A DNA stretch of 64,000 bases from an uncultured delta proteobacterium (GTDB lineage Bacteria; Myxococcota_A; Polyangia; Polyangiales; Polyangiaceae): NCBI GenBank assembly GCA_963763745.1, contig CAVXQJ010000016.1, forward strand, positions 257,029 to 321,028, in the 5' to 3' direction. This document shows positions 3,358 through 53,408 of the stretch, in pieces. Made by a program: the position numbers and the translations under genes. The stretch's first letter is position 1. Each line of letters opens with the position of its first letter. The notes under the pieces are model-generated. The model searched no databases. It was not told where the DNA came from and worked only from the letters and a program-made list of their open reading frames with translations.

Positions 3358-3957
3358 TCACTGGCGCGAGAGCGCGTCGAGAAGGACGTCGAGGCCGAAC
3401 TCGAACAAGTCGTCGAAGTACTGTGGCGCGAGCCACTTCGACACCGCGCTGAGGCGCTCGAATTTCGCGCGCTCTTTTTGATCCTTCTTCTCGCCGTGCG
3501 ACGCGAGCTCGTTCAACGCGATACCGCTGCAATACGAGCTCACCGCGCGGAAGAATCGCGCCGTCGTTCGATCGTCGATGCCCTGCGCGTGCGCGAGCTC
3601 GAAGAGCCGTTCGAGAAACGCAAACGTGCCTTCCGTCGCGAACCTGCGCGTCGCCACGAGCGGAAACGCGTTCGGGTGTTTGCGCGCCAAACCGCGGTAC
3701 GCGCGCGCGACGTCGCGCAGCGCCTCCACCCAGTCTCGTTGGGTTTGTTCGACCGTGATGCGCGACATGAGCTCGTCGACGACCGCATCGAGCAGCGCGT
3801 CCTTGCTCGGGTAATACCAGTAGATCGCCATCGCTTCGCATCCGAGCGCCGTGCCCAGCTTGCGCGTGCTGAAGCCATCGAGCCCGTCCGCGTCGATGAG
3901 CTTCAACGCTTCGCGACGGATTCTTTCGTGCGTGAGGCTCGCGGGCTTCTTCCTCAT
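3358..3957 (-). CDS. TetR/AcrR-family transcriptional regulator
   Basis: N-terminal [62 protein letters not shown] at 3957 overlaps the upstream stop (ATGA). Confidence 0.85.
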
Positions 3958-4505
3958 TGCCGCGGTTCGGCGAGCACGAACGTGTGTGCGTGCTCGGCGC
4001 GGATGGCTCCCGTCGCAGGATCTTTGAGCCACGCCATGCACAGCCGCGGCGGCACCTTGATGATCCCGGGCTTCTCGTAGGTGCGGAACACGAGATCCCA
4101 TATCGGCGTAGTGACGCCGTGGTTCACGCGCGCAGACACGAAGTGATGATGAAAATGATGCCTGCGCGCCCAACGTGCATAAGGCCCGATTCCCGCGTGC
4201 GTATGCTCGAGCCTATGGAGCAATTCGTAAACGCCATAAAAACCGATGAGCCCGAGGACATACGCGATGCCGGGCGCGGTGCCGGCGATCGCGATCGCGG
4301 GCACGCACAAGATCGCGATGGCGAGCGCCGCGATGATCGACTTCTTCCACGTCGGCGCGAAGTAGTTCCCCTCGATGTGATGCCGCACGTGCTCGACGCC
4401 GAATGGGCTCTTGCGAAAGCGCTTGTCGTGGCCCATCCAGCGATGAATCAAATATTCGAGCAGCGTCCACGTGAAGACGCCGAGCAAAGCTGCAATCACG
4501 ATCAC
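3954..4505 (-). CDS. Fatty acid hydroxylase / sterol desaturase-family integral membrane protein
   Basis: His boxes HRWMGH, HRLEH and HHFHHH; about 184 aa, 3-4 TM helices. GTG start at 4505 preceded by GGAGG and overlapping the aminoacylase stop (GTGA). Confidence 0.7.
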
Positions 4506-6257
4506 GATGCACCTCCCATGCGAACGAGCCGGCCGGGTCGCGCGGGCGTGAGCGCGCCGTGCTCGGCGATGACGTCGCCACGGACGAGCGTCGCGATGTA
4601 ACCCTCCGCGCGCTGCACGAGCCGGCGGCCGCCCGCGGGGAGATCCCGCTGAATCGTCGGGCCGGAGGAGCGACAGGCGCTCGAGGTCGACGACGTTGAG
4701 ATCCGCGCGCATGCCGGGCTCGATCGTGCCGCGGTCTTCGAGGCCGATGAAGCGCGCCGTGTCGCGCGCTTGCATCGAGACGACGCGCTCGAGCGGGATT
4801 CCGTTTTCGCGATCGCGCGCCCAGTGCGTGAGGAGAAACGTCGGCATGCTCGCGTCGCACACCGTGCCGACATGCGCGCCCGCGTCGCCGAGCCCGGCGA
4901 GCGCGCGCGGATGCACGAGCATCTCACGGACGGCGTCGAGGCTGAGGCCCGTGTAGTTGTAGATGGGGAAGTAGATGAGCGCTTTCCCGTCGTCCTCGAG
5001 GAGCGCGTCGTACATGCGCTCGAGGATCGGAACGCCCGCGCGCATCGCCTCCGCCGCGAGACACGTGTCCATCTTCGGCTCGTAGAGCGGGCGCTCGCCC
5101 ATCGGGTAGAGGCGCATCGAGAGCATGTCGAGGTTCGCGAGAAAGAAATCCGCGAGCGGCGGAATGGGCGTGCCATCGCCCGCGACCTTGTCGCTCTTTT
5201 CGGAGAGGATGCGCGCGCGAAGCTCGGGGTTTTGCATCTTCGCGACGCGCTCCGCGAGCGGGAGCGACGCGATCGCTTTGTAAGAAGGAAAACCCATGAA
5301 CGGATGAAACGTCGCCTCGAGCCCGAGCAGCACGCCGATGCCGCGCGCTCCGACTTGGCAACGCACGTCGAGGCCGCGTTCGACTGCGCGCTCGGCGCGC
5401 GCGAAGATCCTCCGCCACTGATCGGGCGCGTGATCGCGCTGCATCGTCGAGATGGAGAGCGGGCGACCGCTCGCGCGCGCCATCTGCTCGAGCAGATCGA
5501 ACTCCGGATCGAATCGCTCCGGTCCCATCATCAAATCGAAATCGCTCACGGCTTGAACCACGCCGTGGTCGAGCCCGCGAAACGCGTAGGCGATTCCAGC
5601 GAGCTCGCGGTCGCCCGCTTCGGAAGCCGGCGTCGCCGCGCCGCGCGCGGTGCGGTGATTGTCGCTGCGGCCCGTCGAGAATCCCGCCGCGCCCGCTTGG
5701 AGCGCCTCGCGCAAGACGTCGCGCATCGTCCGGATCTCGTCGTCGGTCGCGATCTCTCCAGCGACGGCGCGCTCGCCCATCACGTACATGCGAAGCGGGT
5801 CGTGAGGAACTTGGAGAAGAAAATCGATCGCGTGCGGCATCGCGGCGACCGCGGTCATGTAGTCGGCGAACGACTCCCATCCCCACGGGATGCCTTCCGC
5901 GAGCGCCGATCCGGGGATGTCCTCGACGCCTTCCATCAGCTCGACGAGCTTGTCCTCGCGACCCGGAACGACCGGCGCGAATCCGACGCCGCAGCTTCCC
6001 ATCACGCACGTCGTGACGCCGTGGAGCGAGCTCGGCGTGAGCTCTTCGTCCCACGACACTTGCCCGTCGTAGTGCGTGTGGATGTCGACGAAGCCCGGGA
6101 GCACGTGCGCGCCGCGCGCGTCGATCGTTCGACGCGCGGGCTCGGAGCACTTGCCGACTTCCACGATTTTCCCATCGCGGATCCCGACGTCGCCAGAGAA
6201 AGAAGGCGCGCCCGACCCGTCGACGATGCGCCCACCGACGATTCTCACATCCAACAT
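4502..6257 (-). CDS. N-acyl-D-amino-acid deacylase (D-aminoacylase, amidohydrolase superfamily) with an apparent 1-nt frameshift near 4650
   Basis: N-terminus [16 protein letters not shown]...[12 protein letters not shown] in one frame to ...[16 protein letters not shown]-terminus [32 protein letters not shown]... continues in the adjacent frame. Junction lies in ...CGGCCCGACGATTCAGCGG.... Confidence 0.75.
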
Positions 6258-9896: not shown

Positions 9897-11624
9897 ATGC
9901 AATTCACACGCGCGCTGATCCCCACGCTGAAAGAGGCACCGCAAGACGCCACGTTCGTGAGCCACGCGCTCCTTCTTCGCGCGGGTTACATCCGCCGCGT
10001 CGGCGCGGGCATCTACGATTTTCTCCCGCTCGGTCTCCGCGTGCTCCGCAAAGTGGAGCGCATCGTGCGCGAAGAAATGGATCGCGCGGGCGCGCTCGAG
10101 ATCCTCATGCCGGTGCTCTTGCCCGGCGAGTACTACAAAGAGACGGGGCGCTGGGACGTGTACGGCGACGTGCTCTTCCGTCTCAAGGATCGCAAAGGCG
10201 GCGATTACAACCTCGCGCCGACGCACGAAGAGATCGTCACCGACATCGCGCGACGCGAGATCAAATCGTATCGCGACATGCCGAAGAATCTCTATCAGAT
10301 CCAAACCAAGTTCCGCGACGAGCCGCGCCCGCGCGCCGGTCTCCTTCGATGTCGCGAGTTCTTGATGAAGGACGCGTACTCGTTCGACGTGAGCGAGGAG
10401 AACGCCCTCGCGAGCTACGAGAAGATGCGTGCAGGATACAACAACATCTTCACCCGAATGGGCCTGAAATTCCGCATGGTCGCAGCCGACAGCGGCGCGA
10501 TGGGCGGCAACACGAGCGCCGAGTTCCAAGTCCTCGTCGACTCGGGCGAAGACGCCATCGTCGCATGCGACAAGTGCGACTACGCGGCGAACGTCGAAGT
10601 CGCCGAGGTGAAGGTCGTCGACCCCGGCCGCCGCGCGATGGCGACGACCATCCGCATGATGAAGGTCCACACGCCCGGACAAAAAACGATCGCCGAGGTC
10701 GCCGCGTTCATGAACGTGAAGCCGAGCGAGATGTTCAAGTCGCTCTTGTACGTCGCCGAGGGTTCGAACCAACCGGTGATGGCCATCATGCGCGGCGATC
10801 ACGAGCTCAACGAAGTGAAGCTCGCGCATGCCCTCGGAGCATCCGCCGTGCACCTCGCAACCGAGGCCGACGTGAAAACGGCGACGGGCGCCGAGGTCGG
10901 ATTCGCGGGCCCCATCGGCTTCAAGGGAAAGATCTACATCGATCGCGCGGCGGCGCTCGTGCGCAACGGCGTGTCGGGCGCGAACGAAACGGATCATCAC
11001 CTCGCGAACGTGAACCATGGTCGCGATTTCGAAGCCGAGGTCGTCGACGTGCGCCTCGCGCAAGACGGCGATCTGTGTCCGCGCTGCGATGAGGGCCGCT
11101 TGCACGCGTACAAAGGCATCGAGGCGGGACACATCTTCGTCCTCGGCACGCACTACTCCGCGAAGATGGGCGCAACCTTCCTCGACGAGCAGCAGCAGTC
11201 GAAACCGGTCGTCATGGGCTGTTATGGAATCGGCGTGTCGCGTCTCGTCGCGACGACGATCGAGCAACACCACGACGAAAACGGAATCAGCTGGCCGATG
11301 CCCATCGCGCCGTATCACGTGCACCTCTGCACGCTCGGAAACGACGACGCGGTGCAATCCGCCGCGCGAACGCTCCATGACGGTCTCGAAGCGGCCGGCG
11401 TCGAAGTGATTTGGGACGATCGCGACGAGAGGCCCGGCGTGAAATTCAAAGACGCCGATCTGCTCGGCGTGCCGCTCCGCGTGACGATCGGGAGCAAGGG
11501 GCTCGCGCAGGGCGGAGTCGAGCTCAAGCCGCGCACGGAGAAAGATCCGAAGAAGGCGGAGATCATTCCGCTCGATTCGGCCGTCTCGGTCATCGCGTCG
11601 CGCGTGAAAGCCGCGCTCGCGTGA
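9897..11624 (+). CDS. proS: Proline--tRNA ligase (bacterial type with editing domain)
   Basis: MQFTRALIPTLKEAPQDATFVSHALLLRAGYIRRVGAGIYDFLPLG...RDEPRPRAGLLRCREFLMKDAYSFD...; 575 aa; full-length class II aaRS. Confidence 0.95.
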   Translation: MQFTRALIPTLKEAPQDATFVSHALLLRAGYIRRVGAGIYDFLPLGLRVLRKVERIVREEMDRAGALEILMPVLLPGEYYKETGRWDVYGDVLFRLKDRKGGDYNLAPTHEEIVTDIARREIKSYRDMPKNLYQIQTKFRDEPRPRAGLLRCREFLMKDAYSFDVSEENALASYEKMRAGYNNIFTRMGLKFRMVAADSGAMGGNTSAEFQVLVDSGEDAIVACDKCDYAANVEVAEVKVVDPGRRAMATTIRMMKVHTPGQKTIAEVAAFMNVKPSEMFKSLLYVAEGSNQPVMAIMRGDHELNEVKLAHALGASAVHLATEADVKTATGAEVGFAGPIGFKGKIYIDRAAALVRNGVSGANETDHHLANVNHGRDFEAEVVDVRLAQDGDLCPRCDEGRLHAYKGIEAGHIFVLGTHYSAKMGATFLDEQQQSKPVVMGCYGIGVSRLVATTIEQHHDENGISWPMPIAPYHVHLCTLGNDDAVQSAARTLHDGLEAAGVEVIWDDRDERPGVKFKDADLLGVPLRVTIGSKGLAQGGVELKPRTEKDPKKAEIIPLDSAVSVIASRVKAALA

Positions 11625-39466: not shown

Positions 39467-39910
39467 TCAAAACGATTTGAACGACGCCACCGCGACGCCG
39501 ATGGACGCGACGACGAGCGCGAACGAAAACGCGACGACGTACGCGAGGTGCGCGGTGCGCGCGATGCGCTCGCGAGCGGGCTCCGGCGTCATCGGCGCGA
39601 CGAAGTGCGCGATGCATCCGACGAGCGCGAACGCGACCGCGGCCACGGCGAGGTGCTCTTTGCGCTCGAACGCCCAACCCCACGAGGGCGCTTCGATGAA
39701 GATGCGTTGCTTGAGGCGCGTCCGATAATCCGGATACATCCACGCGCCGAGCGAGGCGGTCACGACGAGGAGCACCGTCGTGAGCCCGACGGAGAGACGC
39801 GCGCGCCGCTTCGGGTTCCGCAAGACGACGACCGGATGCAGCAGCGCGACGACGGCGAGCCAGCCGAGGTGACCATGAATGCGCTCGAGGAGCCTGAGCG
39901 TTTGGATCAC
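39467..39910 (-). CDS. 4-TM His-containing membrane protein, possibly cytochrome b561-like (weak)
   Basis: VIQTLRLLERIHGHLGWLAVVALL... resembles the ...R..HW..A... opening of cytochrome b561/NiFe-hydrogenase b subunits; conserved His in TM1, TM3 and TM4. GTG start overlaps the upstream stop (GTGA). Confidence 0.35.
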   Translation of the reverse strand: MIQTLRLLERIHGHLGWLAVVALLHPVVVLRNPKRRARLSVGLTTVLLVVTASLGAWMYPDYRTRLKQRIFIEAPSWGWAFERKEHLAVAAVAFALVGCIAHFVAPMTPEPARERIARTAHLAYVVAFSFALVVASIGVAVASFKSF

Positions 39911-40209
39911 GGCAAGAACAATCCTTGAATGCCGGCGAGCGCGGCGACGGCGATCACGGCGACTTCGAGCATGCGCGCGGCGCGCGCGAGATCGCGCCGC
40001 GCGACTTCGAACGCACCGATGCCGACGATGGGCGCGACGTACACGCCGATCCACAAACGCCAGAACGTCGCGATCTTCACGGACGCCGTGATCACCGCTG
40101 GGTTCGGCTCTGCGACGAAGAAGACTTCATACCCGCGCATGACGGCGTACACGGCGGGAACCGTGAGGACCGCCGACGCGAGCGCGACGCCGAGCGCGGG
40201 TTTGTTCAC
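39907..40209 (-). CDS. Small (about 100 aa) integral membrane protein, hypothetical
   Basis: VNKPALGVALASAVLTVPAVYAV..., three hydrophobic segments; GTG start 8 nt after the preceding stop. Confidence 0.35.
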   Translation of the reverse strand: MNKPALGVALASAVLTVPAVYAVMRGYEVFFVAEPNPAVITASVKIATFWRLWIGVYVAPIVGIGAFEVARRDLARAARMLEVAVIAVAALAGIQGLFLP

Positions 40210-40216
40210 GTGCGCA

Positions 40217-41020
40217 TTAGAACCCGAAGCCGACGAGCGTGCGAAACCAAATGGGGCCGTACGAATCGACGCCCGCATCGAGCACGCGGCCGAAGTTCGA
40301 CACGCGCATGTAGATGCCCGACGTCCAGAAGAAGTTGCCGAACGAGAGTCGCAGCGTCGGGCCGATGTAATGATGCGGTCCGCCGTTGAAGTCGCCGGAC
40401 TCGGGCGCGTCGGAGCGCACCTCCGCGCGCATCCAATATTCGAAGCCTGGAAAAACGTTCGGCGTCGCTTGCACCGTGAAACCCGCCGTCGGGTTGAAGA
40501 CCCACTCGCGGCGGCCGGTGTAATAAAATTCGTATTCGAACCACGCGTTCGCGAGGAGCCGCACGGGACCAAAGCGGCGCTCGAGGATGACCTTCCACTC
40601 GAGCTCGACCTCCGTGTTCGCTTCGCTCACCTCGCCGTAGAGCGCGACGTCGATGGGCCAGTCGCCTTGATCGGCGAGCCGCCATCGGACGCGCTGCTTT
40701 GCGCCGTTGCCTTCCGTGAGCGAAGGGATCGCAAAATATCCGGAGGCCTCGGGCGAGAGCGTCACGTAGAGGCCGAGCTCGACGCGATTCGACAGGCCGT
40801 ATTCGACTTCGGTTTGGAGCTGCGTCGCGAGGTAACGTTCGGGTAGGCCGTTCGCGTTCAGCGCCATCACGGGAACGAGATCGACGTACTGCTCGACTTC
40901 GCCTTGGCCCTTCGGGTTCGTGTCCGTTCCGTACGTGAAGGGAAGGGGCTTCGGCGTCGCGCCCGCGGTGCTCGCGAGCGTGATGATGCACGCGCCAACG
41001 AGCGGACCACGCACTACCAT
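40217..41020 (-). CDS. Outer-membrane beta-barrel protein, hypothetical
   Basis: Signal peptide MVVRGPLVGACIITLASTAGA; alternating amphipathic beta-strand pattern; C-terminal ...TLVGFGF aromatic terminus typical of OMPs. Confidence 0.55.
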   Translation of the reverse strand: MVVRGPLVGACIITLASTAGATPKPLPFTYGTDTNPKGQGEVEQYVDLVPVMALNANGLPERYLATQLQTEVEYGLSNRVELGLYVTLSPEASGYFAIPSLTEGNGAKQRVRWRLADQGDWPIDVALYGEVSEANTEVELEWKVILERRFGPVRLLANAWFEYEFYYTGRREWVFNPTAGFTVQATPNVFPGFEYWMRAEVRSDAPESGDFNGGPHHYIGPTLRLSFGNFFWTSGIYMRVSNFGRVLDAGVDSYGPIWFRTLVGFGF

Positions 41021-41568
41021 TGCGACAGCGACAGCTCCGGCGCGAAGACGCAGTCGTTGTTCTGCGCGCTCGAGTGGCAGCTCGTACACGCGCCGCAGCT
41101 CGCATACGGCGAGCCGGCATTGGGCTCCGTGCCGCTCCATTCGAAGCCCGTGCCGGCGTCGGGCGCGAAGAGTCCGTACCACTCCCAACCTTCGCAGCCG
41201 CTTCCCGCGTTGAATCCGCCGCCGCGCTTTGCCATGGCGAACACTTGCCAAGTCGACGGATCGCTCGTCACGCGGATTTGCTTCACGATCATCGTTCCGA
41301 CGGGAAATGCGGTCGATCCGTGCGCGGGCGATTCGTTCATGAACGCGACGCGCGGGACGTTCGCGGTGTGCGCGCATGCGTCGCCGATCATTCCGCCGTC
41401 GCCGCCGCCGAGATCGTACGACGTCCACGATTCGTAGCTCGCGAAGTCGCTCGGGAACGCGACGAACTCGCCCGCGTCGTCCGCCTGATGCACGTCGGGC
41501 GCGCACGCGGATGCGAGCGCGCATACGGCGATCTCAAAAATGAATCGTGATGCTCTCGATGTCGCCAT
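41014..41568 (-). CDS. Cytochrome P460-like haem-c lipoprotein
   Basis: Lipobox VCALASAC; single CXXCH (CTSCH) near the C-terminus followed by NDCVF. ...AFPVGTMIVKQ... and ...GGGFNAGSGCEGWEWYGLF... resemble cytochrome P460 conservation from memory. Confidence 0.5.
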   Translation of the reverse strand: MATSRASRFIFEIAVCALASACAPDVHQADDAGEFVAFPSDFASYESWTSYDLGGGDGGMIGDACAHTANVPRVAFMNESPAHGSTAFPVGTMIVKQIRVTSDPSTWQVFAMAKRGGGFNAGSGCEGWEWYGLFAPDAGTGFEWSGTEPNAGSPYASCGACTSCHSSAQNNDCVFAPELSLSQW

Positions 41569-42046
41569 AGCCGCAGTCGGTGGTGGGTGGTGCGTGGAGA
41601 TACGCGTCACTGGCGATCGTGCCGTGCGCGGTCATGCTGGGTGCGTCGAACGCGTCGAGCGTGAGCGTGAGCGTGCCGTTCGGAGCTTCGGTGCTCCCGG
41701 CTTGGAACACGCACGCCGACTTCGCGGAGATCGCGGTCACGTCCCACGACGAGGCAGAGTCGTTCGTGAGCTGACCGATGGTGGGAGCGCTGCCGAGATC
41801 GATCGACGCCGCGATGCGCTCGAGCCCGGTCGTCTTCGTGTCGATCTTCAGCATCCAATCGCCGCCGGCGTCTGCGTCTTGCGAGACCGTCACGCACGCG
41901 GGCTCGCTCGACGCGCTGTACACGTTGCCCGTGAGCACGAAGTCGCACGTGCTCGGCCCGGCGTCGTTCGCGGAGGGCGAAGAGCTGCACGCGGAGAGCG
42001 CCAAGAAGGCGAGCTCACAGACTCTTGAGATATTCCGTGAGCGCAT
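41534..42046 (-). CDS. Lipoprotein, hypothetical (170 aa)
   Basis: MRSRNISRVCELAFLALSAC lipobox; overlaps the 3' end of the upstream disrupted CCP-like gene by 32 nt. Confidence 0.5.
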   Translation of the reverse strand: MRSRNISRVCELAFLALSACSSSPSANDAGPSTCDFVLTGNVYSASSEPACVTVSQDADAGGDWMLKIDTKTTGLERIAASIDLGSAPTIGQLTNDSASSWDVTAISAKSACVFQAGSTEAPNGTLTLTLDAFDAPSMTAHGTIASDAYLHAPPTTDCGYGDIESITIHF

Positions 42047-44250
42047 TCAGATCCTCTGGCGAGAGCGTGATGTTCTTCGTCGCGGCGAGCATGCGCGCGG
42101 CGGCATCCGAGAGCGTCGCCGCGCTCCCGTCGTGGAAATACGGCGGCGTCGACCACACGCCGCTCAGCGACGGCGTGTCGAAGAGACACGCACCGCGCGC
42201 GTTCCCGTCGATGTCGGTGTGCGCGACGTCGGGAAACACGCCGCCGTTCACGCACGTGCCGACGTCGTGCAGCGTGATCGGTCCCGACAGATCGAGCGTC
42301 GGATTGTCAAAGCCCGAATCGGTGAAGCGCGGGCCCGAGTGACACGTCGCGCATCCGTTGTTTTGGAAAATCGCCTGACCCTTCGCGACGAGCGTCGCGT
42401 CGGTCGTCGGCGGGATCGGCAGCGGGATGCCGAAGTTCACGTACGTCGCGATCGCGTCGAGCAGTTTTTGCGATCCCCGAATCCGTCGCGTCGAAGCGCC
42501 CGCCTTGCTCGATGTTGATCGTGCGCCAGTAGTCTTGGACCTCGGTTGCGATCCGCCGTGCGAAACAGGAACCCCGTGCCGAGCATGCCGCCCGCGTTCG
42601 TCGGCGTGTCGCGCGGGCCGGGCGTCGAAGCGCCACGTGACCGCGTCGCTGCGTCCTTCCATGTGACACGTCGCGCACGCGACCCAGTGGTTCGTCGTGA
42701 TGGGATACTCGTCGCTGTTCGCGGAGTAGAAGAGGTGCTGCCCGAAGCGCATCTCGGTGGGCATCGGATCGGACGCGAGCGTCGCGATGGGCGCGCCGTC
42801 CACGGTGAGCGTGAGCGCCCCGTCCGTGCGATTCACGTCGAGCACGACGACGTCGTTCGTGTTGCGCTCTTCGACGTAGGCGAATGTCTCGTCGGGCGAG
42901 AACGCGATCGCCTCCGGTTGATGACCCGGAAGCGGCCGCAGCATCGACGACTCGACGTGACGCACGGCGTCGACGACGAGCACGTCCTCGCTGTTCGTGT
43001 CGACCATCAGCGCGAACGCGCCGTCGCTGCGTGAACGCGACCGCATGCGGACCGGACACGACGTCGGCGAACGCGCCGTTCACGCCGGGCACGTCCTGCG
43101 CGTTGATCGACATGAGCCGCTGCACGTTTCCTTCGGGCGTCATCACCGCGAGCGCCGCGAACGTGGTCGACTCGAAATCGAGATCGGGCTGCGCGGTTTC
43201 GGTGCCGAGGAGCGAGAGTGCGACCCAGAGCTCCGTCGTCGCCGGGTCTTGGCGCGATGTCGTAGAGACCGCGCGGCTGTCCGTTCGCGAGACGCTTGTC
43301 TCCGCGCGGGTCGACGTCGGGAATGACGAACGGCGGCTTCGCGGTCATGGTGGCTCGGATCGATCGCCGTCACGCCCGCGGTGAGAAAGTGCGATCACGT
43401 AGAGCGTGCGCCGCCGGACCACGCGAGCGCCCATGGCTCTTGTCCGACGAGGGCGCTCGACTTCACCGTGAGCGACGCGGCGTCGAGCCGCGCGACCGTG
43501 TTGTCTTGCGAGCAAGCGACGTAGAGCGACGCGCCGTCGCGGCGAGAGCAAGATGCCAACGGGCTCGCTGCACACGGCGACGCTGCTCGTCGCCGACGCC
43601 GAGCCGACGTCGACCGCGTGCACTTTTCCGGAGCGCTCGCCGGTCACGTAGAGCGTCTTCTCGTCCGCGCGAGAGCGCGAGCGCGCGCGGCATGACGCAC
43701 GGCGCATACGCGCCGTTCGCGTCGACCTGCGGATGCGCGCGGCGCGAGGAGGACTTCGCGCTTCAGCGTTCGCGCGTTCGCGTGTCGAGGATCGAAACCG
43801 AATCGGCGTCGGGGTTCGACGACGAAGAGCGTCGCGCCGTCGCTTGGTGATCGCCATCGCCGACGAATGCAAGAACGGTCCCGTCACGCCGCGCGTCGGG
43901 GCCCGCGTCGTTCGTGCCCGCTCCACCGTTGCACGCGCACACGAGCCACGAGGCGCGATCGAAAGCGCGCTCCTCACTGCGCCCTCGCGACGTGGAAGGT
44001 GATCTGCGACGCGAGCGCGGCGGGCAGCTTCGCGTCGTCGATCTCGGGCACGCAATCGTGCTCGCGATCCGACGTCGTGCGTGCGCTGTCCGCCGATCGG
44101 AATTTGTTCTTCCGCCGCTGCCGCTCTCGCCCGTCAGCGTGCGCTCGGCCATCTGGAGCCCGCCGCGCGGAAGATTGCCGACGACGTTGACGCACTCGCC
44201 CGGCCAGTCGACGAGGCGGTTGTCGTTGCGATCGTCCCAGCCGTTGAGCA
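42015..44250 (-). pseudogene. Multiply frameshifted gene for a YVTN-type beta-propeller fused to a di-haem cytochrome c peroxidase/MauG-like domain (upstream boundary approximate)
   Basis: Two CXXCH motifs (CATCHMEG, CATCHSGP). Between them the coding sense passes through all three frames within about 200 nt (...AVTWRFD | TPGPRDTPTNAGGMLGTGF | EVQDYWRTINIEQGG | GSQKLLDAIATYVNFGIPLPIPP). Propeller fragments (FSPDETFAYVEERNTNDVVVLDV, KTLYVTGERSGKVHAVDVG, NPDADSVSILDT) are scattered over at least 4 frame segments. Confidence 0.55.
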
Positions 44251-44259
44251 CGAGCTTGT

Positions 44260-46452
44260 TCAGCCGGCCGACGCGCTCTTCGAGGATCGGCTCGAGCGTC
44301 TTGTCCGCCGGGTCGCGCCGCGACGAGCTCGTACACGTCGCGCAATGCGCTCTGCAGCAGCGCGAAGCGCAGCGGCGTGTACTCGACGTCGGTCATCGGC
44401 GCGGGCGTCGGCGAGTAGATGCGCGCGTCCGCGTCGTAGAACGTCGCGTCGAGTCGCGCATACACGGCCATCGCGCGGTCGCGGTATTTCACGTCGCCCG
44501 TCGCGAGGTACATCGCGAAGAGCCCGCGAATCGCCGCCGCGTGCGCGTCGAGCGTGTCGTTCGTGATCCGTCGGCTGCGAGGTCGCGACGTCCCAACCGG
44601 AGTACGCGCGGCCCGTCGCGTCGGTGAGGTGATCGTAGAGCAGCGCGCCTTGCGCGCGGAGCATCGTCCTCACGCGCTGCGAGAACGTCGCGCTCGACGG
44701 ATGGTTGATCGGGAGCGCGTCGAGCGGCGTCGAGACGATCGCGGTGTCCGGCGTGTTGTTCGAATAGAGCTCGAGCTGCGAGCACAGCGCGCGGAGCGCC
44801 GTGCGCATCGCGATGATCGCGTACGCGACCGACGTCGTCGCGACGGTCGTGCCGCGCGCCGGCGTGGTCCCGTTCATCGTGACGTCGTCGACGAGCACGC
44901 CCGACGGGTCGCGCGTGGATGCGATCCATGTCGACGAGCGCGACGCGCAGCATCGCGAGCGCGCGATCGTGCAGCGTGGGCTCGCCGTCGGCGTTCTGAT
45001 TGTCGGCCGCGAACGGATCGCCGTCGAATACGCACTGCGCGGTCTGCGAGCCGCCGACGTCGGCGTTGTTCGCGTCGCGTGATCGCGTAGAACTCGGAGT
45101 AGCCGAGCACGAGCCCGGCGAGATCGAGCAAGCTCGCTGTCGGCGACGAGAGCGCGTACGCGGGCATCGGAAAGCCGCTCGCGTCGTCGCTCTCGGTCAC
45201 CGCGATCGCGCGCGGGAACCAGCGCAGCGGCGCTTGGTAGTCGTACGCGAGCGCGTCGCAGCGTCGTCGCGAAGCCCGAGAGCGTCGCGCCGTCGCGCGG
45301 TCGTGAGGTTGCATGAGCCAATCCTCGGCGCGGTTGTCGAGCTCCTCGATGAACATCTGCGCCTGGAAGCCTTCGATGTCGCTCGAGCCGAGGAACGTGC
45401 CCGGCGCAGTCGCCGCGCCCGTGTCGTCGGCGCCGACGATTTGATTGCCCGGCGCGCCGACGTTCGCGAGATCGCTCGCGGCGACGCGTCGCGACGCCCG
45501 CCTCGGTCGAGTCGTGCATCACCTGCAGGTAGTTGAGCACCCAGAGCCCGTACTTCCACGCGCTGAAGCCGTCGGCGCCGGGCGTGATCGACCGGTTCGA
45601 TCTGCGACGCGCGATCGCGCAGGTGCAGCGTCGTCGCGTCGCACTCGTAGTCGGCGCACGTGAGCGCGCCCGCCGATCCCGGATCGTCGTCGGAGCTGAT
45701 CGAGCAGTACGAGGTCGACCGGCGCTGGTGGGCGCGATCGTCGGATCGAAGCTGCGGAACACGTGCACCGTGGGCCAGATGCCGGGCCAGCCGAGCGGGT
45801 TCTCCGACGCCTGTCCTTTCGCCGAGCGGGTTGGCGTCGCCCGGTCCGCGCGGCTCTGCCGCGAGGTTCGGTTGTCGCGGAAACGTGCTCGCCGGAAACA
45901 CGAACGCGCCGAGCGCGTTCGCTGCCCTGCGCGAAGTGCTGAACGAGCGTCGCGAGCGCGCGCCGTCGCTTGCGCGCCATGCAGCGCGCCGCCCGCGTTG
46001 ACGAGCGGACCGTAGACGAGCGAGGTGCCCGCGCCCGACTCGAACGCGATGTTGTTCATCGGTTGCTTCGAGTACTCGTACGACTCGACGCCGGTGGAGA
46101 AGCCGGGAAGATCGATCCACGCGCCGCTGCGCGTTCGGTGCCGTCGTCGAAGTAGAGATCGTCGGGGACGTGATCGCGGCTGTAGTCGGTGAGCTCGCGA
46201 CCCATCGACTCGGCGAACGGCTCGCCGGAGATCTGCATCTCGCCCGACGCGAGGAAGTGCTCGCGCGTCACGAAGCGCGTGCTGCCGACGCGTCGCGGTG
46301 ATCGTCACGAGCGGCGGCGGTGGAGGGGCTTCGACCGATGCGTCGAATCCACCATCGGTCGGGGTCGGCGCGCTTGGACCACATGCCGCAAACCCAATCC
46401 CAGCGAAAACCGCTGCCGAGAAGTTGAAAGCGACTTTCATCTTCATGTTCAT
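44260..46452 (-). pseudogene. Heavily frameshifted large lipoprotein gene, possibly an (alpha/alpha)6-barrel glycosidase/epimerase-like protein
   Basis: Lower-GC N-terminus MNMKMKVAFNFSAAVFAGIGFAAC (lipobox). Real-looking segments alternate with frame breaks: HFLASGEMQISGEPFAESMGRELTDYSRDHVPDDLYFDDGT, WIDLPGFSTGVESYEYSKQPMNNIAFESGAGTSLVYGP, GADGFSAWKYGLWVLNYLQVMHD, ...ALLYDHLTDATGRAYSGWDV.... At least 8 frame changes. Confidence 0.45.
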
Positions 46453-46460
46453 TTACTGTT

Positions 46461-46506
46461 CTTTGCGGGATTCGCAAAGACAAAACCTCAAGTTCGGATC
46501 CGAACT
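46461..46506. promoter_or_regulatory. Two palindromes between tandem minus-strand genes: CTTTGCG-GGATT-CGCAAAG (46461-46479) and a perfect 16-mer AGTTCGGATCCGAACT (46491-46506)
   Basis: Read directly. On the minus strand the 16-mer hairpin is followed by GAGGTTTTGTC (terminator-like for the 46533 gene). The second hairpin ends 9 nt before the ATG of the 46452 gene. Confidence 0.4.
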
Positions 46507-46532
46507 TACGGGTGAGGTGCCGACCGATGGCG

Positions 46533-47453
46533 TTACGGCGCGTCGCAGAAGTCGGCGTAGCGCTCCACATCGAGCGCGGCGATGACGGCGCTGCGCTCGC
46601 CGGGACGGTAGCTCTCGTAGAACGCGACCTCGGCGTCGCGATATGCGGGCCACACCACGACGGCGTCGTTGATCGCGGGAAGCGTATCCGGCTCGGCGTC
46701 CGCGCGCGCGGTCGCGAGCGCGCGCGCGGCGTTCTCCTCGGCGATCGCGAGCTCGGGCGCGCGTGGGATCCAATTCGATTGCATGAGTCGCTCGATGCGC
46801 GTGTGGCGCCTCTTCATTTGCGCGAGGATCGCGGCGCGCATCGCGGGATCGCGCATCGTGCCGCCAGCGAATCGCGCGTAGGTGATCGCGCCGACCTTGA
46901 ACGCGTAGGCGTCGTGCGCCTTTGTCGCCGCGGCGAACAGCGCCGCGCGATCGCTCGACATGGTGCGCTTGACCACGCGAAGCCAGATGTCTTCGTTCTC
47001 GACGTGCTCGGCGATGCACGCGCTCGATGCGAGCGTCGTCATGGCGAACGCATCGCACGACCCGAACGCCGCCTCGTGCTTCGCTTCGTGCTCGCGCACG
47101 GTTTGGACGGATGCGTCCTCGAAGCATCCGTCGAAGAGCGCGAGACCGCGCTTCGAATCCGCGGGGCCTCCCGTTCCGTCGATGAGCGACACCGCGAGCT
47201 CGAGGCGCGCGAGCGATGGCGATACGTGGTCGCCGCACGGATCGGATTTCACCTCGCGCTCGAGACACGCACGTGCCTTGGTTGCGTCGGGTGATGCGCC
47301 GTCGGGAGCGTACGCGCCGCACGGAAGCTCTTCTTCGTATGCAGCGATGGGAGCGGCCGCGTCGATCGCCGGCGCGGCGAGCGTGACCGATGGAGCCTCC
47401 GCGGCGCGACAACCGATGAAGAGGACAGCCCACCAAACCCGCACGCCGTTCAT
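46533..47453 (-). CDS. Secreted hypothetical protein, possibly DUF1311/LprI-like (weak)
   Basis: Signal peptide MNGVRVWWAVLFIGC; about 300 aa, helical, several conserved-looking Cys. Family call is a guess. Confidence 0.45.
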   Translation of the reverse strand: MNGVRVWWAVLFIGCRAAEAPSVTLAAPAIDAAAPIAAYEEELPCGAYAPDGASPDATKARACLEREVKSDPCGDHVSPSLARLELAVSLIDGTGGPADSKRGLALFDGCFEDASVQTVREHEAKHEAAFGSCDAFAMTTLASSACIAEHVENEDIWLRVVKRTMSSDRAALFAAATKAHDAYAFKVGAITYARFAGGTMRDPAMRAAILAQMKRRHTRIERLMQSNWIPRAPELAIAEENAARALATARADAEPDTLPAINDAVVVWPAYRDAEVAFYESYRPGERSAVIAALDVERYADFCDAP

Positions 47454-47473
47454 GCTAATGGAACGCTCGGCTC

Positions 47474-49390
47474 ATGACCGTGCTTCAAGTCTCCGACGTA
47501 CGATTTGGTTACGGCGGCGACGTGCTCTTCGAGAACGTCACGTTCACGCTCGCGATCGGCGAGCGGGCCGCGCTCGTCGCGCCGAACGGGGCAGGGAAGT
47601 CGACGCTGCTTCGCATCGTGGCTGGCGAGATCGAGCCCGACGCGGGTAACGCGGTGATCAAGAAGGGAACGACGGTCGGCTACTACCGGCAGTCGCACGA
47701 GATCGACGCATCGGGCGACGTCCTCTCCGCGCTCTTGTCCGGTTACGGCGACGTGCTCGCGCTGCGCGAGAAGCTCGCCGAGGCACAGCGCGAAGTCGGC
47801 ACGGGCGACCACGACGCGCTCGAGCGGCTCGCGCGCGTCACGGACGAGTACCACGTGACGGGAGGCGACGCGGTCGAGCACGAGGTCGCTGCGATCGCGC
47901 ACAAGCTCGGTTTCACCGAAGCGGATCTCGCGCGCCCCGTCGAGTCGCTCTCGGGCGGCGAGCGCGGGCGTCTTCGCCTCGGCGTGGTGCTCGCACAGAA
48001 ACCAGAGCTTCTGCTCCTCGACGAGCCGACGAACCACCTCGACCTCGACACGATCGATTGGCTCGAGTCATACCTCCGGTCATACCGCGGCGCGGTGCTC
48101 GTCGTGTCGCACGACCGCGCGTTCCTCGACGACACGTGCGAGCGCACGCTGGAGCTCGGTCGCAAAGGTCTTCGCGTCTACCCGCTTCGATACAGCGACT
48201 ACGCGATCGCGCGCGAGGAGGACTTGGCGCGCGAGCGCGCGCTGCTCGAACGGCAAGAGGCCTTCATCGACAAGACCGAAGACTTCATTCGCAAGAACAT
48301 CGCGGGACAAAAGACGAAGCAAGCGCAGTCGCGTCGCAAGATGCTCGAGAAGCTCGACAAGCTCGAGCGGCCCGAGGACGTGTGGCGCGTCGCGGACAAG
48401 ATGAGCGTGCGCTTCGCGCCCGCGGCGCGAACGGGCGACATCGTGCTCGATTGCAAAGACGTCGGCGCGGCACGCGGCGGGCGCACGTTGTTCGACGGCG
48501 TCGAGCTGCTCGTGCGACGCGGCGAGCGCATCGGCATCGTCGGTCCGAACGGCGCGGGCAAGACGACGCTGCTGAAGATCGTCGCCGGTCGCGGCGACCC
48601 GAGCGATCGCGGGAGCGTGCGGCGCGGAACGAATCTTCAAGAAGGGTATTTCGATCAGCATTTGGGAGAGGTCGATCCGTCGCGCACCGCGGTGGAAGAA
48701 GTGCGGCGCGTGCGCGGCGACTTCACCGTCGAGAAAGCTCGCGAGTACCTCGCGCGGTTCCGCTTTTGGGGAGACGACCCGCTCCGCGTCGTCTCGGGCT
48801 ACTCCGGCGGCGAGCGATCGCGCCTCGCGCTGGCCAAGCTCCTCCTCGAGCCGCGGAATCTATTGTTTCTGGACGAGCCAACCAACCACCTCGACATCCC
48901 CGCCGCGGAGATCCTCGAGGAAGCGCTCGTCGCGTTCGAGGGCACGGTGCTCTTCGTCTCGCACGACCGGCGCTTCCTCGAGAACGTCGCGACGCGCATC
49001 GTGTCGGTGCGGGACGGTCGCGTCGAGATCTACAACGGCGGCTTCCGCGATTACGTGCAAGATGCACACAAAATTCGCGAAGAATCCCCTCCGAAACCGC
49101 AGAAAAAATCAGCGCCGCCTCCGCCTCCCAAGAAGGACGAGGCGCGCGCGACGTTCGAAGCGCAGAAGGCGCGCGCGCGGGAAGAAGAGAAGAAGAAGCG
49201 CCGTATTGCAGAATTGGAGAGCTCGATCGCGGTCGCGGAGACGGAGCTCGGCTTGATGCGCGAGAAGCTGAAACAGGACCCAGGCGGCGATTGGTCGCGT
49301 CTCGCGGAGCTCGCCGAGCGCGAACAGGAGCTATCGCGTAAAGTCGATGGGATGATGGCCGAGTGGGCGAAGCTTTCGGAGGCGTCGTGA
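47474..49390 (+). CDS. ABC-F family ATPase (tandem ATP-binding cassettes, EttA/Uup-like translation factor)
   Basis: Two Walker A motifs (APNGAGKST, GPNGAGKTT), two LSGGE signature motifs, and a charged inter-domain linker and C-terminal coiled coil typical of ABC-F. Confidence 0.9.
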   Translation: MTVLQVSDVRFGYGGDVLFENVTFTLAIGERAALVAPNGAGKSTLLRIVAGEIEPDAGNAVIKKGTTVGYYRQSHEIDASGDVLSALLSGYGDVLALREKLAEAQREVGTGDHDALERLARVTDEYHVTGGDAVEHEVAAIAHKLGFTEADLARPVESLSGGERGRLRLGVVLAQKPELLLLDEPTNHLDLDTIDWLESYLRSYRGAVLVVSHDRAFLDDTCERTLELGRKGLRVYPLRYSDYAIAREEDLARERALLERQEAFIDKTEDFIRKNIAGQKTKQAQSRRKMLEKLDKLERPEDVWRVADKMSVRFAPAARTGDIVLDCKDVGAARGGRTLFDGVELLVRRGERIGIVGPNGAGKTTLLKIVAGRGDPSDRGSVRRGTNLQEGYFDQHLGEVDPSRTAVEEVRRVRGDFTVEKAREYLARFRFWGDDPLRVVSGYSGGERSRLALAKLLLEPRNLLFLDEPTNHLDIPAAEILEEALVAFEGTVLFVSHDRRFLENVATRIVSVRDGRVEIYNGGFRDYVQDAHKIREESPPKPQKKSAPPPPPKKDEARATFEAQKARAREEEKKKRRIAELESSIAVAETELGLMREKLKQDPGGDWSRLAELAEREQELSRKVDGMMAEWAKLSEAS

Positions 49391-50118
49391 TGAGGCGCGC
49401 CCTCACGATCTTGCTCGCGGTGCTGCTCGGCCTCGGTCTCGCGGCTTGCAAGAAGAAGGGCAGCGGCGTCGCCACGGCCGACACGACGATCGTCGTGAAG
49501 GACTCGAGCGAAGGGCTTCTCTTCACGTGGGTCGACGACAAGGGCGATTTCCACGTCGAGCAAAAAGTCGCGGACGTTCCGATGATGGGGCGCGACGCGG
49601 TGCGCGTCGTCAATCCGAACAGCGACGAGGGGACGCACGAGGACAAAGTCTTCGTCGCGGATCTGCGCCAAGCGCACCCCGACGGGACGTACAGCGTGTC
49701 GGTGATGTCGAAGCACGACTTCGAGAACATCGCGGAGGCGCGGCGCGAGAAGAAGGGACCGACGCTCGCGACGGCTGCATCGGCGCTCGCGTCCGCGGCC
49801 GCTTCTGCATCGTCAGCGCCGGACACGCGCGCGGATCAGACGGGCGGCGGCGCGGACACCGGTCGCTCGACTGTCATCATCTACGGCGCGGAGTGGTGCG
49901 GCGCGTGCCACGAAGCAGCTGCGTACCTGCGTCGCAAGGGGATCCCCTTCGTCGAGAAGGACATCGAGAAAGATCCGCAAGCCGCGCACGAGATGCAGAG
50001 CAAGCTGAAGATGAACGGCATTCGATCGGGATCGATCCCCGTGATCGACGTGCGCGGAAAAGTGATGGTCGGTTTCAGCCCGACGTCGGTGGACGAAGCG
50101 CTCGGCCACGCAACTTAG
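49390..50118 (+). CDS. Glutaredoxin/thioredoxin-fold lipoprotein
   Basis: ATG overlaps the ABC-F stop (TGATG). MRRALTILLAVLLGLGLAAC lipobox; C-terminal ...IIYGAEWCGACHEAAAYLRRKGIPFVEKDI... with CxxC. Confidence 0.65.
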   Translation: MRRALTILLAVLLGLGLAACKKKGSGVATADTTIVVKDSSEGLLFTWVDDKGDFHVEQKVADVPMMGRDAVRVVNPNSDEGTHEDKVFVADLRQAHPDGTYSVSVMSKHDFENIAEARREKKGPTLATAASALASAAASASSAPDTRADQTGGGADTGRSTVIIYGAEWCGACHEAAAYLRRKGIPFVEKDIEKDPQAAHEMQSKLKMNGIRSGSIPVIDVRGKVMVGFSPTSVDEALGHAT

Positions 50119-51419
50119 TTTTCGAAACGGTAGAGCGCGCCGTCCTTCTGCGAGCCCGCGTAGAGCGCGTCGTCGTAGACGGCGAGCGGGGCCGCGCAGA
50201 AGAAGTCGTCCGCGGCGAAGAGCTTCTTGTCGTCCCAAGTCGCGACGGGCGTCAGCGTTTCTCCATCGAGCGCGAAGAGGGCGCGCTCGGCGAGCACGAC
50301 GAGCCCGTCGCGGAATCGTACGACGTCCGTCGGGCGACCGGCGCTCGTGGGCACGTCAATCGTCTTCCATGTCTTCGCGTCGTGCGTCACGCGGATTCGG
50401 CCACGGCCGTCTTTGTCGATCGTGATCCAATACAGCGCGCCGGTGTCGGCGTACCAGCGAAGCGTCTCCGCGCCGCCTTCGTCCGTCACGCGCCGCGGCT
50501 CGAGCTTCTCGCCGTCGAACACGACGAAGTCGTTCGGCTCGCGTGGATAATATTCTTGGATACCCGCGTAGAGCTTGTCGCGATATCGAACCATGTACGT
50601 GAGTCGCCACACGTCCGATGTCGCGTTTTCGGGATAACCCACGACGTATTCGAAGCGATGCGTCGTCTCGTTCAAGACGTTGAGCGCGCCGGGCGACGAG
50701 CCGTGCCATGCGCGCTCGGTCGGCGGCACCGAGCCCGTCGAGGCCCACGTCTTTCCGCGAAAGCGAATGACGTCGAGATCGTGATACGCGCGCGGGATCA
50801 CGAGCGCGGTCTTCGGTGGTCTGAAATGCGCTTTGCGCGGACGGTCTTCGTCTTTGGTCGGATTCAGCGCTTTGGCGAACGCACCGTGCTCGTCCGAGAC
50901 GAACACGTAGCCCTCCGTGCCTTGATCGACGATGCCGAAACCGTCGTACGGAGGGTCTGCGTCGGCGACCCATAGTTTGCCGTCGAACGCGTGGACGCGA
51001 ATGAAACCTTGTCCCGCGCCGCCGCCGCCCGTGGGCTCGCCGGGTCTGTTCCAGTCGAACGCGACCGAAAACTGATTCGTCGCGTGATCGTATTTCGTGA
51101 TTGTGGCGCCATCGATGCCGAGCGGTTGATACGCGTGCGCGGCGTAGAGCGCGCCATCGAAGACCGTGAGATCGCAAACGCGAGAGAGGCTGAGCCAGGT
51201 GCGGCCGACGCGAGCGAATTTTCCGCTCGTCGGGCGTGTGCCGTGGCCGGGATCCGTGAGGTCGTCGTCGCCGTCGGGATCGAGCTGGGTGGTGGCGGAG
51301 CTGGAGTCGGGGGCGGGGACGGGGACGGAGGCGGAGACGGAGGCGGGCGCGGAGACGGAGACGGGGGCGGGTTTGTCGCACGCGACGAGGAAGGCGAGAA
51401 CGCAGAGGTTGGTGCGCAC
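50115..51419 (-). CDS. Lipoprotein, beta-propeller-like, hypothetical
   Basis: VRTNLCVLAFLVAC lipobox from the GTG at 51419 (the track ORF extends to a TTG at 51470). Low-complexity SVSAPASVSASVPVPAP linker, then beta-rich domain. Confidence 0.55.
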   Translation of the reverse strand: MRTNLCVLAFLVACDKPAPVSVSAPASVSASVPVPAPDSSSATTQLDPDGDDDLTDPGHGTRPTSGKFARVGRTWLSLSRVCDLTVFDGALYAAHAYQPLGIDGATITKYDHATNQFSVAFDWNRPGEPTGGGGAGQGFIRVHAFDGKLWVADADPPYDGFGIVDQGTEGYVFVSDEHGAFAKALNPTKDEDRPRKAHFRPPKTALVIPRAYHDLDVIRFRGKTWASTGSVPPTERAWHGSSPGALNVLNETTHRFEYVVGYPENATSDVWRLTYMVRYRDKLYAGIQEYYPREPNDFVVFDGEKLEPRRVTDEGGAETLRWYADTGALYWITIDKDGRGRIRVTHDAKTWKTIDVPTSAGRPTDVVRFRDGLVVLAERALFALDGETLTPVATWDDKKLFAADDFFCAAPLAVYDDALYAGSQKDGALYRFEN

Positions 51420-51470
51420 GATCGATCTTCGCGGGAGACGAACGAAGTGTGACACGCGTCGACTTGGCAA

Positions 51471-52326
51471 CTATCGTTTCTTCCGGCGGACGACGCGCTC
51501 GTACACATCCCGGCGCGGACGCCCGCTCCACGCGGCGACGCGCTCGGCGATGGTCTTTGCGTGCGCGCCAGCGGCGAGCTCCGCGTCGATGCGCGCGTCG
51601 ATCGCGTCTTCGCCGATCGCCACTTCGCGCGCCGCGGGCTCCCACGCGCCGAGCACGATCGTGATCTCGCCGCGCCAGTCACGGTCAACGGCTTCGCCCC
51701 CGACGCCACCAAGCGCGATGTCGGTCAGCGTTCCGCGGAGAAATTCTTCGTGCACCTTGGTGATTTCGCGCGCGACGCACGCCGCGCGCGTCGGCATCGC
51801 TTCGCACAAGTCGCGCAGCGTCGCCGCCGCGCGTTCGGGCGACTCGTACATCACGACGGGCTCCGCGGTCGCCGCGACGAGCGCGATCGCGCGCGCGCGC
51901 GCCGTCCCATCTCGCGGCATGAAACCGATGAAGCGAAACCCCGAGTCTTCCGCGAGGCCGCTCGCGGTGAGCGCCGCGAGCGCCGCGCTCGCACCCGGAA
52001 TCGGAACGACGCGAATGCGCGCCGCGATCGCCGCGCGCACGAGCTCCGCGCCGGGATCGCTCACGCTCGGCGTGCCCGCGTCCGTCACGAGCGCGACCGT
52101 CTCGCCCGCGATCATCCTTTCGACGAGCTTCGCGTGCGCGCGCTCGGACGAATGCGCGTGGAGCGCGACGAGCGGTTTTCCCGCGATGCCGTGCGCGGCG
52201 AGGAGCTTCGACGTTTGACGCGTGTCCTCCGCCGCGATGACGCTCGCCTCGCGCAGCGTCTCGAGCGCGCGCAGCGTGATGTCCTTCAAGTTCCCAATCG
52301 GCGTCGCGACGATGAACAGCAACGCG

Positions 52327-52334
<8 letters not shown>
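51471..52334 (-). CDS. rsmI: 16S rRNA (cytidine1402-2'-O)-methyltransferase RsmI
   Basis: [45 protein letters not shown]... is the tetrapyrrole-methylase-fold RsmI signature. Confidence 0.9.

Positions 52335-53408
<1,074 letters not shown>

Follow-up and report, generated by a model that had tools for sequence, protein, structure and literature searches.

A 3.8-kb insertion-only tract across a Polyangia lipoprotein/di-heme cytochrome gene pair is most likely an assembly artifact

Two overlapping genes on the minus strand of the 64-kb stretch of DNA analyzed here (the window) are interrupted by ~36 frame breaks, and the evidence of the sequence and its orthologs makes it most likely (probability roughly 0.85) that this tract is a local consensus or basecalling artifact of long-read assembly, with both genes intact and mis-sequenced. 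A preliminary description had offered either gene decay or a low-quality or collapsed assembly; the single lesion type and the intact orthologs described below favor the assembly-quality alternative over decay, and collapse in the sense of merged alleles is not favored either. The region from 42015 to 46452 resolves into gene A followed by gene B, with the GTG start of gene B overlapping the gene A stop codon (GTGA):

46452-43974, minus strand: gene A, lipoprotein of ~820 aa, read through 19 single-nucleotide insertions
43977-42015, minus strand: gene B, YVTN beta-propeller plus MauG/CCP-like di-heme cytochrome c domain, ~650 aa, read through ~16-19 extra nucleotides
42471-46290: insertion-dense tract, ~36 extra C or G in 3.8 kb (~1%)

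With 19 "+1" shifts allowed, gene A aligns end to end (aa 1-831) with the intact 831-846 aa orthologs of three syntenic loci (L009, L010, and L012) at 75-78% identity, and its corrected length (2479 nt - 19 = 2460 = 820 codons) agrees with the frameshift count. Read directly from the translation, the N-terminus is a signal peptide that ends in a lipobox cysteine (MNMKMKVAFNFSAAVFAGIGFAAC|GPS), the hallmark of a bacterial lipoprotein, and the orthologs carry the lipoboxes ...AFSAC|SG and ...AFAAC|GN; the remainder of gene A corresponds to no known domain, with no match in Pfam or NCBIfam. Gene B aligns over aa 5-652 with the intact ortholog P0001 of L009 at 79% identity, shifts again allowed, and matches the Pfam families Lactonase, Cytochrom_C (32.5 bits; cut-off, 21.3), RoxA-like_Cyt-c (27.1; cut-off, 26.7), and CCP_MauG (19.9; below the cut-off of 25.6). 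The NCBIfam YVTN repeat model exceeds its cut-off, and the MbnH, MauG, and CCP models of NCBIfam fall far below theirs. Gene B harbors two CATCH heme motifs (CXXCH type), and its 896 homologs are mostly 600-660 aa long and intact. These features bear out the identities first proposed, a propeller/di-heme protein for gene B and a lipoprotein for gene A.

We followed the coding frame through the window with a GC3 frame plot and a seven-state codon-usage Viterbi segmentation, which agree that the minus-strand frame changes every ~100-250 nt between 42.0 and 46.3 kb; in the rest of the window, frame segments are ~1 kb long and end at gene boundaries. The breaks were then placed by frameshift-aware protein-to-DNA alignment against the three intact syntenic orthologs (75-79% amino acid identity). 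This analysis, one of the checks originally recommended, places ~36 breaks between 46290 (first) and 42471 (last), ~8 per kb, with 19 in gene A and ~16-19 net extra nucleotides in gene B, essentially each of them one extra nucleotide. The dense frameshifting reported at 42015-46452 is real by all three methods, and the original count of "at least 12" was too low. The insertion sites given by the alignment are:

Gene A, minus strand: 46290, 46145, 46126, 45957, 45920, ~45820, 45717, 45710, 45589, 45486, 45311, 45295, ~45256, ~45078, 44911, ~44563, ~44300, ~44117, ~44077
Gene B, minus strand: 43891, 43842, 43817, 43776 (double), ~43740, 43669, 43539, ~43410, 43395, 43352, 43240, 43026, 42626, 42544, 42471

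One further insertion probably lies at ~43950, in the signal-peptide region of gene B, and the final three sites (42626, 42544, and 42471) account for the three frame changes previously noticed between the two CXXCH motifs.

All 19 lesions in gene A and nearly all of those in gene B consist of one extra nucleotide, and the frameshift-aware alignment reveals no clear deletion and no indel longer than 2 nt in either gene, nor any in-frame stop after frame correction. The shifted frames remain open for hundreds of codons, as in a 730-aa Arg/Ala-rich ORF (44260-46452); this ORF and other deposited fragments of the region, such as the 210-aa P0136, are spurious. The earlier advice against annotating intact genes here is sound in that the ORFs should not be taken at face value, but both genes beneath them are most likely whole. 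The final 456 nt of gene B, the opening 162 nt of gene A, and the adjacent genes are free of insertions; because the tract breaks off 456 nt before gene B ends, its limits are not those of the genes. The 11 flanking syntenic genes (39470-42046 and 46536-53408) contain one frameshift in total, a T-run deletion at 52804. Outside the region we find five to seven candidate frame breaks in 59.6 kb, in line with the initial estimate of about one per 9 kb, and the local excess in the tract is roughly 80-fold.

Several observations would fit genuine pseudogenes, in which both genes were inactivated in the lineage and real frameshifts accumulated under relaxed selection: the breaks are present in the deposited sequence, the record's own gene calls are fragmentary (P0136), genes A and B form one overlapping unit, so that loss of a single module is conceivable, and two further contigs, L013 and L014, also harbor broken copies of the pair. 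Natural decay is nevertheless expected to leave indels of varied size, as a rule biased toward deletion, and many more substitutions and nonsense codons than are found here, and L013 and L014 are broken at different positions of the genes, both contigs being error-prone throughout. Once corrected, both proteins regain full length and collinearity with intact orthologs, and their distance ratios to the three orthologs (1.28 for gene A and 1.19 for gene B) fall within the span of 0.88-1.50 shown by 10 flanking intact genes; the suggestion of relaxed selection on a redox module is therefore not upheld, the corrected proteins being no more divergent than their neighbors. GC3 is undiminished at ~0.9 in every fragment of both genes. 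The comparison with orthologs that had been called for finds the genes unbroken in 11 of 11 cases (the three syntenic loci and eight further relatives, short-read, JGI, or otherwise intact), so the interruptions are not shared. Because every lesion is a +1 insertion of C or G tied to a specific context, unlike the products of slippage or random mutation, and because deletions, stops, and excess substitutions are lacking, we favor an artifact over decay and regard genuine pseudogenes as unlikely.

The sequence context of the extra bases is distinctive. The extra base is C or G, nearly always a C before G or a G after C, and unambiguously creates a new CpG at 15 of 22 evaluable sites, where 3000 simulated random insertions passed through the same procedure give an expectation of 9-11% (P about 1e-10). 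Only 3 of the 22 are compatible with a homopolymer, versus about 50% expected (P < 1e-3). A consensus context of G[C]GACG emerges, 18 of the sites lying on the minus strand and 6 on the plus, and one context recurs almost deterministically, G|GACGGCGCG having gained an extra C in four of five copies inside the tract and in none of five outside it. One example of this recurrent context is as follows:

43017-43044, minus strand: ...CAG[C]GACGGCGCG..., with the extra C

The same 10-mer context carries the extra C at 43539, 43842, and 45295, and these recurrent contexts surface in a repeat analysis as the direct-repeat families D1, D2, and D6. Deterministic conversion of GGAC was considered and rejected, as GGAC is not depleted in the tract, where 19 copies remain. 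No repeats or hairpins bound the tract, the only repetition found being DNA similarity among propeller blades, and the window contains no paralog that might explain failed short-read polishing.

The lesions track assembly type rather than gene or lineage. Reference-free frame segmentation of relatives yields two candidate frameshifts in about 140 kb of MEGAHIT or JGI sequence versus 25 in about 94 kb of Flye-style "contig_N" sequence. Furthermore, L014 (ENA ERZ25039556 contig_6928, an independent Flye-style metagenome contig) harbors a second insertion-only tract in an unrelated gene, a heavy-metal P-type ATPase, with 14 "+1" and two "+2" shifts in 2 kb, no clear deletion, and contexts that partly coincide with those in genes A and B (GCG|GTC to GCGCGTC; CGC|ATC to CGCGATC). 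The assembly of the source contig is itself indel-prone in general: single frameshifts elsewhere in the window interrupt a sigma-70 gene (the T-run deletion at 52804), a T3SS/flagellar-type ATPase (~30103), an ABC transporter (~57202), a GMC oxidoreductase (~22117), and an amidohydrolase (~4662), those at ~30103 and ~57202 being readable as short-run extensions. Exact protein matches are confined to two short Logan contigs of run ERR11594405 that cover only the flanks (window positions 40673-42432 and 46240-47585). Two short-query protein searches returned no near-identical intact fragment and no other match at or near 100%, a DNA pattern that allowed two of the insertions to be present or absent found no match in JGI metagenomes, and a scan of GTDB species representatives gave relatives at 51-59% identity only. 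No genome or contig above 80% identity was found, and the closest orthologs (75-79%) are intact.

We also considered that two haplotypes differing by SNPs in a recombined 4-kb segment were collapsed, with both alleles emitted in tandem so that each variable site gained one base. The lesions are localized and insertion-only, no inserted base matches both of its neighbors, third-position G/C differences are common in high-GC genomes, and one of the Logan contigs stops 39 nt short of the last site, as expected if the assembly graph branched at the border of a variable segment. Against this, two-fold degenerate codons are affected about as often as four-fold ones. At approximately 9 of 21 well-defined sites the insertion comes after a two-fold degenerate codon (AAG, CAG, GAC, AGC, ATG, or ATC), and there the implied second allele would be nonsynonymous at a residue conserved in all orthologs (such as K to N at 43842, or Q to H at both 44563 and 44077). 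Transition-type pairs (A/G or C/T), expected between close strains at least as often as G/C transversions, are absent, and recurrence at four of five copies of one 10-mer is not anticipated for SNPs. Given the codon degeneracy and the missing transition pairs, we reject merged strain alleles as the main cause and give them very little weight.

The context specificity and strand bias also fit a sequence-directed process, and the second insertion-only tract in a related organism might be read in the same way. It is scarcely credible, however, that the extra bases are real and tolerated, whether through programmed +1 recoding, nucleotide deletion at the RNA level, or sequence-specific insertional mutagenesis. 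Some 36 recoding events per two proteins would leave a negligible yield; programmed frameshifting operates at one or a few conserved sites that have a slippery sequence or stop-codon trigger along with a stimulatory element, and here none of the ~36 sites is conserved in orthologs and neither slippery sites nor stop-codon triggers are present. Indel RNA editing is not known from bacteria. The second tract, moreover, affects an unrelated gene, on a contig that is plainly error-prone, and short-read relatives lack such tracts. A related proposal, that the DNA of Polyangia genomes truly acquires single C or G residues over kilobase tracts through a context-directed process (G|GAC to GCGAC), is highly improbable; if true, such a process would inactivate whole gene pairs at once, leave no further mutation, and have separately struck the P-type ATPase gene of a related population.

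On the favored reading, both genes are intact in the organism, and a 3.8-kb consensus patch carries ~36 spurious single-base insertions, each shifting the frame by +1. The 607-kb source contig, in which conserved genes show occasional homopolymer indels, appears to derive from a long-read metagenome assembly, and the reads in the patch may have been few, one-stranded, or otherwise poor in support, such that a systematic read-level insertion error survived consensus or polishing. A low-depth consensus that favors insertions, for example the heaviest path in a partial-order alignment graph, would leave an insertion-only residue of ~1%.

If so, long-read metagenome contigs can hold kilobase patches of ~1% insertion-only errors that mimic massive gene decay, which is relevant to genome scans for pseudogenes or relaxed selection. 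Such patches should be recognizable from sequence alone by a single lesion type, a specific context, and no excess of substitutions; the CpG-creating, non-homopolymer signature falls outside commonly described long-read error classes and may interest developers of assemblers and polishers. The locus itself should be read as an intact, translationally coupled lipoprotein and beta-propeller/di-heme cytochrome pair that is widely conserved in Polyangia.

Like bacterial pseudogenes formed by gene decay, the tract has frames interrupted many times and fragmentary gene calls; unlike them, it shows no deletion bias, nonsense codons, accelerated substitution, or loss of codon-position signal, and its lesions are of one type in one context. 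Gene-fragmenting indels of long-read (ONT or PacBio) assemblies, the targets of ARAMIS (PMC8574707) and Kastor (PMC12007338), likewise split genes that are intact in relatives by single-base changes; they are common in Flye-style metagenome contigs, and short-read assemblies have almost none. The signature nevertheless fits none of the documented classes compared. In high-GC genomes, PacBio consensus errors take the form of deletions in G/C homopolymers (PMC8574707), and ONT errors, concentrated in homopolymers, are deletions, then mismatches, then insertions (PMC8486125), whereas the lesions here are insertions only, keep clear of homopolymers, generate CpGs, and fall within 3.8 kb at ~1% density; the one classical homopolymer indel is the sporadic deletion at 52804. 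Nanopore basecalling errors at modified motifs (PMC11610603) share context dependence and strand bias (18:6 in the tract) and would survive consensus only where one strand dominates, but these methylation-induced errors are strand-specific substitutions (C to T and G to A) at methylation motifs genome-wide, whereas the tract contains insertions and the same contexts outside it are unaffected. Our literature search found no description of an insertion-only CpG error class. Finally, gene B resembles the YVTN beta-propeller/MauG-CCP-like di-heme proteins of Polyangia, with an N-terminal YVTN-type propeller followed by two CXXCH heme sites, in a domain order that recalls the hydrazine synthase beta-gamma fusion. 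It weakly matches hydrazine synthase beta and gamma, MbnH, MauG, and CCP, each specific family model scoring far below its curated cut-off, and it adjoins a lipoprotein gene in conserved synteny, as in its relatives.

Across 42015-46452, both a GC3 frame plot and a codon-usage Viterbi segmentation show the minus-strand reading frame switching every 100 to 250 nt; outside this segment, frame switches coincide with gene boundaries. The segment, in a window of ~66% G+C, holds two genes that are most likely intact, and its insertion-dense tract (42471-46290) most likely reflects a local artefact of the long-read consensus.

46452-43974, minus strand: gene A, lipoprotein with a lipoprotein signal peptide at its start (MNMKMKVAFNFSAAVFAGIGFAAC)
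43977-42015, minus strand: gene B, GTG start

The gene A stop and the gene B start share 4 nt (43974-43977, GTGA; ATGA at 10001-10004 in the related contig L010). None of the Pfam and NCBIfam models searched matched gene A. In the gene B product, a YVTN-type beta-propeller precedes a di-haem cytochrome c domain that carries two CATCH motifs; the protein matches the Pfam families Lactonase, Cytochrom_C, RoxA-like and, weakly, CCP_MauG, and scores above the cut-off of the NCBIfam YVTN repeat model and far below those of the hydrazine synthase, MbnH, and MauG models. Its orthologue in contig L009 (10001-11956) weakly matches models for hydrazine synthase beta, gamma, and the beta-gamma fusion, as well as chains B and C of PDB 5c2v; the likeness is one of architecture alone (propeller then di-haem), with all scores far below family cut-offs.

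The order ABC-F ATPase, 306-aa protein, gene A, gene B, and five small proteins is conserved, and three metagenome contigs, L009 (JGI), L010 (ENA MEGAHIT), and L012 (ENA/NCBI), have it in common around A and B. Both genes are unbroken in all three (A, 831-846 aa; B, 611-658 aa). Among eight further relatives in Kofleriaceae MAGs, gene B is matched in a single continuous frame in every one and gene A in seven, six of them in a single continuous frame; nearly all of the listed gene B homologues (896 detected) are 600 to 690 aa long. Contigs from Polyangia/Kofleriaceae keep A and B in synteny, and several paralogous copies occur per genome (two of gene A in locus L004; the gene B loci L005 and L008 belong to one MAG). 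The 4-nt overlap and the synteny suggest that A and B are a putative co-translated two-protein module. A 189-aa gene B homologue fragment from another dataset (P0132, on a 625-nt ENA contig; 80% identity) continues past "AVMPRAL" into unrelated, apparently out-of-frame sequence and may be another frameshifted copy.

The breaks were placed with a purpose-written frameshift-tolerant protein-to-DNA aligner and three orthologues per gene, an alignment that the preliminary description had proposed. Gene A requires 19 shifts, each a single extra nucleotide, and its length less 19 nt is exactly 820 codons. Gene B requires 13 to 15 single extra nucleotides and two places with two extra (net, 16-19), of which the one at 43776 is naturally taken as a pair of neighboring single insertions; one further extra nucleotide probably lies in the signal peptide. 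The sites run from 46290 to 42471, and the earlier count of at least 12 breaks thus held but was understated about threefold. Across 11 syntenic genes on either side (39470-42046 and 46536-53408), the same aligner finds a single frameshift, at 52804, and the remainder of the window contains five to seven candidate breaks, in agreement with the background of about one per 9 kb estimated previously.

In natural pseudogenes, deletions and insertions of differing lengths build up together with nonsense codons and, most of all, with substitutions that far outnumber indels. Frame-corrected A and B are full-length, collinear with their orthologues at 75 to 79% identity, and free of in-frame stops in these alignments. 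The ratio of mean distance to three orthologues over inter-orthologue distance is 1.28 for A and 1.19 for B, within the range of ten flanking intact genes (0.88-1.50), and third-position G+C stays close to 0.9 across all fragments; substitutional decay has thus left no trace. The preliminary description had offered gene decay or a locally low-quality or collapsed assembly, and the evidence favors low assembly quality. Decay, under which the lesions would be real, is unlikely: ~36 context-specific insertions of one type and nothing else do not fit it, and the orthologues have none of these interruptions. That the tract stops 456 nt short of the gene B stop also speaks against decay, but weakly, since gaps of 350 to 400 nt occur inside the tract as well. 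No signal supports recoding or editing at ~36 sites, and the frames after the shifts remain open.

Essentially all lesions in A and B are +1. In codon-by-codon comparison with orthologue DNA, the typical event is an extra C, either flanked by Gs or just ahead of a G, or an extra G just behind a C (slash, insertion point):

43842: AAG/GAC to AAGCGAC
43539: CCG/GAC
46290 and 45486: ACG/GTC
44563 and 44077: CAG to CACG
45920: AGC/AAC to AGCGAAC
42471: ATC/CAA to ATCGCAA

At each site, every single-base deletion restoring the best protein alignment was enumerated, and 3000 simulated random insertions were processed identically as a control:

New CpG created by every best candidate: observed 15/22, simulated 9-11%, P about 1e-10
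New CpG created by one or more candidates: observed 17/22, simulated 30-32%, P about 1e-5
Homopolymer-compatible: observed 3/22, simulated about 50%, P < 1e-3

With every site oriented as C inserted before G, the consensus is G[C]GACG (minus strand, 18; plus strand, 6). In the 10-mer context G/GACGGCGCG, four of five copies within the tract carry the extra C and none of five outside it; GGAC is not depleted in the tract, and penetrance is therefore partial except in this context. Merged strain alleles would likewise leave a local, insertion-only pattern, but this origin is very improbable: twofold degenerate codons are affected as frequently as fourfold ones, many implied alleles alter conserved residues, transition-type pairs are absent, and SNPs are not expected to recur in one 10-mer.

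Frame segmentation without a reference, applied to all retrieved loci, finds two candidate frameshifts in ~140 kb of MEGAHIT/JGI contigs and 25 in ~94 kb of Flye-style "contig_N" contigs. The A-B pair is also broken in the Flye-style loci L013 (7977-12323) and L014 (8058-12378), with just six to eight mixed +1/-1 breaks at positions unlike those of the window. In L014 (ENA ERZ25039556 contig_6928), an unrelated gene for a heavy-metal P-type ATPase (3645-5696, minus strand) carries another dense tract, where alignment to a 72%-identical plasmid homologue gives 14 single and two double extra nucleotides over 2 kb and no clear deletions. Several of these insertions fall in contexts also hit in the window tract (GCG/GTC to GCGCGTC, CGC/ATC to CGCGATC, GCG/GGA to GCGCGGA). 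An insertion-only patch of ~1% density thus recurs with this kind of assembly and is not a property of the locus. No near-identical intact fragment came up in protein searches with short corrected queries, and a JGI DNA pattern search gave no match to the tract. In run ERR11594405, two short Logan contigs agree exactly with the window in the flanking proteins and cover just 40673-42432 and 46240-47585; the end at 42432 falls short of the last insertion site by 39 nt, and the end at 46240 lies 50 nt past the first insertion site.

The window belongs to a contig of 607,100 nt, present in NCBI and ENA, that is indel-prone in general, and single frameshifts break five further genes, the last four otherwise continuous:

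52804, in 53408-52330, minus strand: sigma-70 gene, one T fewer in a T run than in all three orthologues (CTA TT- TTC versus TTG/TTA TTC/TTT TTC)
~30103: T3SS/flagellar-type ATPase, looks +1
~57202: ABC transporter (TM plus NBD), looks +1
~22117: GMC-type oxidoreductase, looks +1; readable as GCG/GAT to GCGCGAT, a context shared with the tract
~4662: amidohydrolase, looks +1

The event at 52804 is a classical homopolymer deletion, unlike the tract insertions.

A context- and strand-dependent read-level insertion error, normally outvoted, would survive at very low depth or where one strand supplies the reads. A consensus that maximizes path weight in the alignment graph would then retain minority-read insertions and drop deletions, leaving an insertion-only residue, and we infer that the tract may have arisen by such a route. 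The biological interest is low and the methodological interest modest, given the unusual CpG-creating, non-homopolymer, insertion-only signature. The error classes checked match the tract inexactly, and about a tenth of the probability is kept for real lesions. For PacBio, the consensus errors of high-GC genomes are deletions in G/C homopolymers (PMC8574707), whereas the insertions here mostly avoid homopolymers; ONT read errors rank deletions above mismatches above insertions, half of them in homopolymers (PMC8486125), which the insertion-only tract avoids; and the ONT errors that methylation induces are substitutions specific to one strand (PMC11610603), in contrast to the insertions described here.
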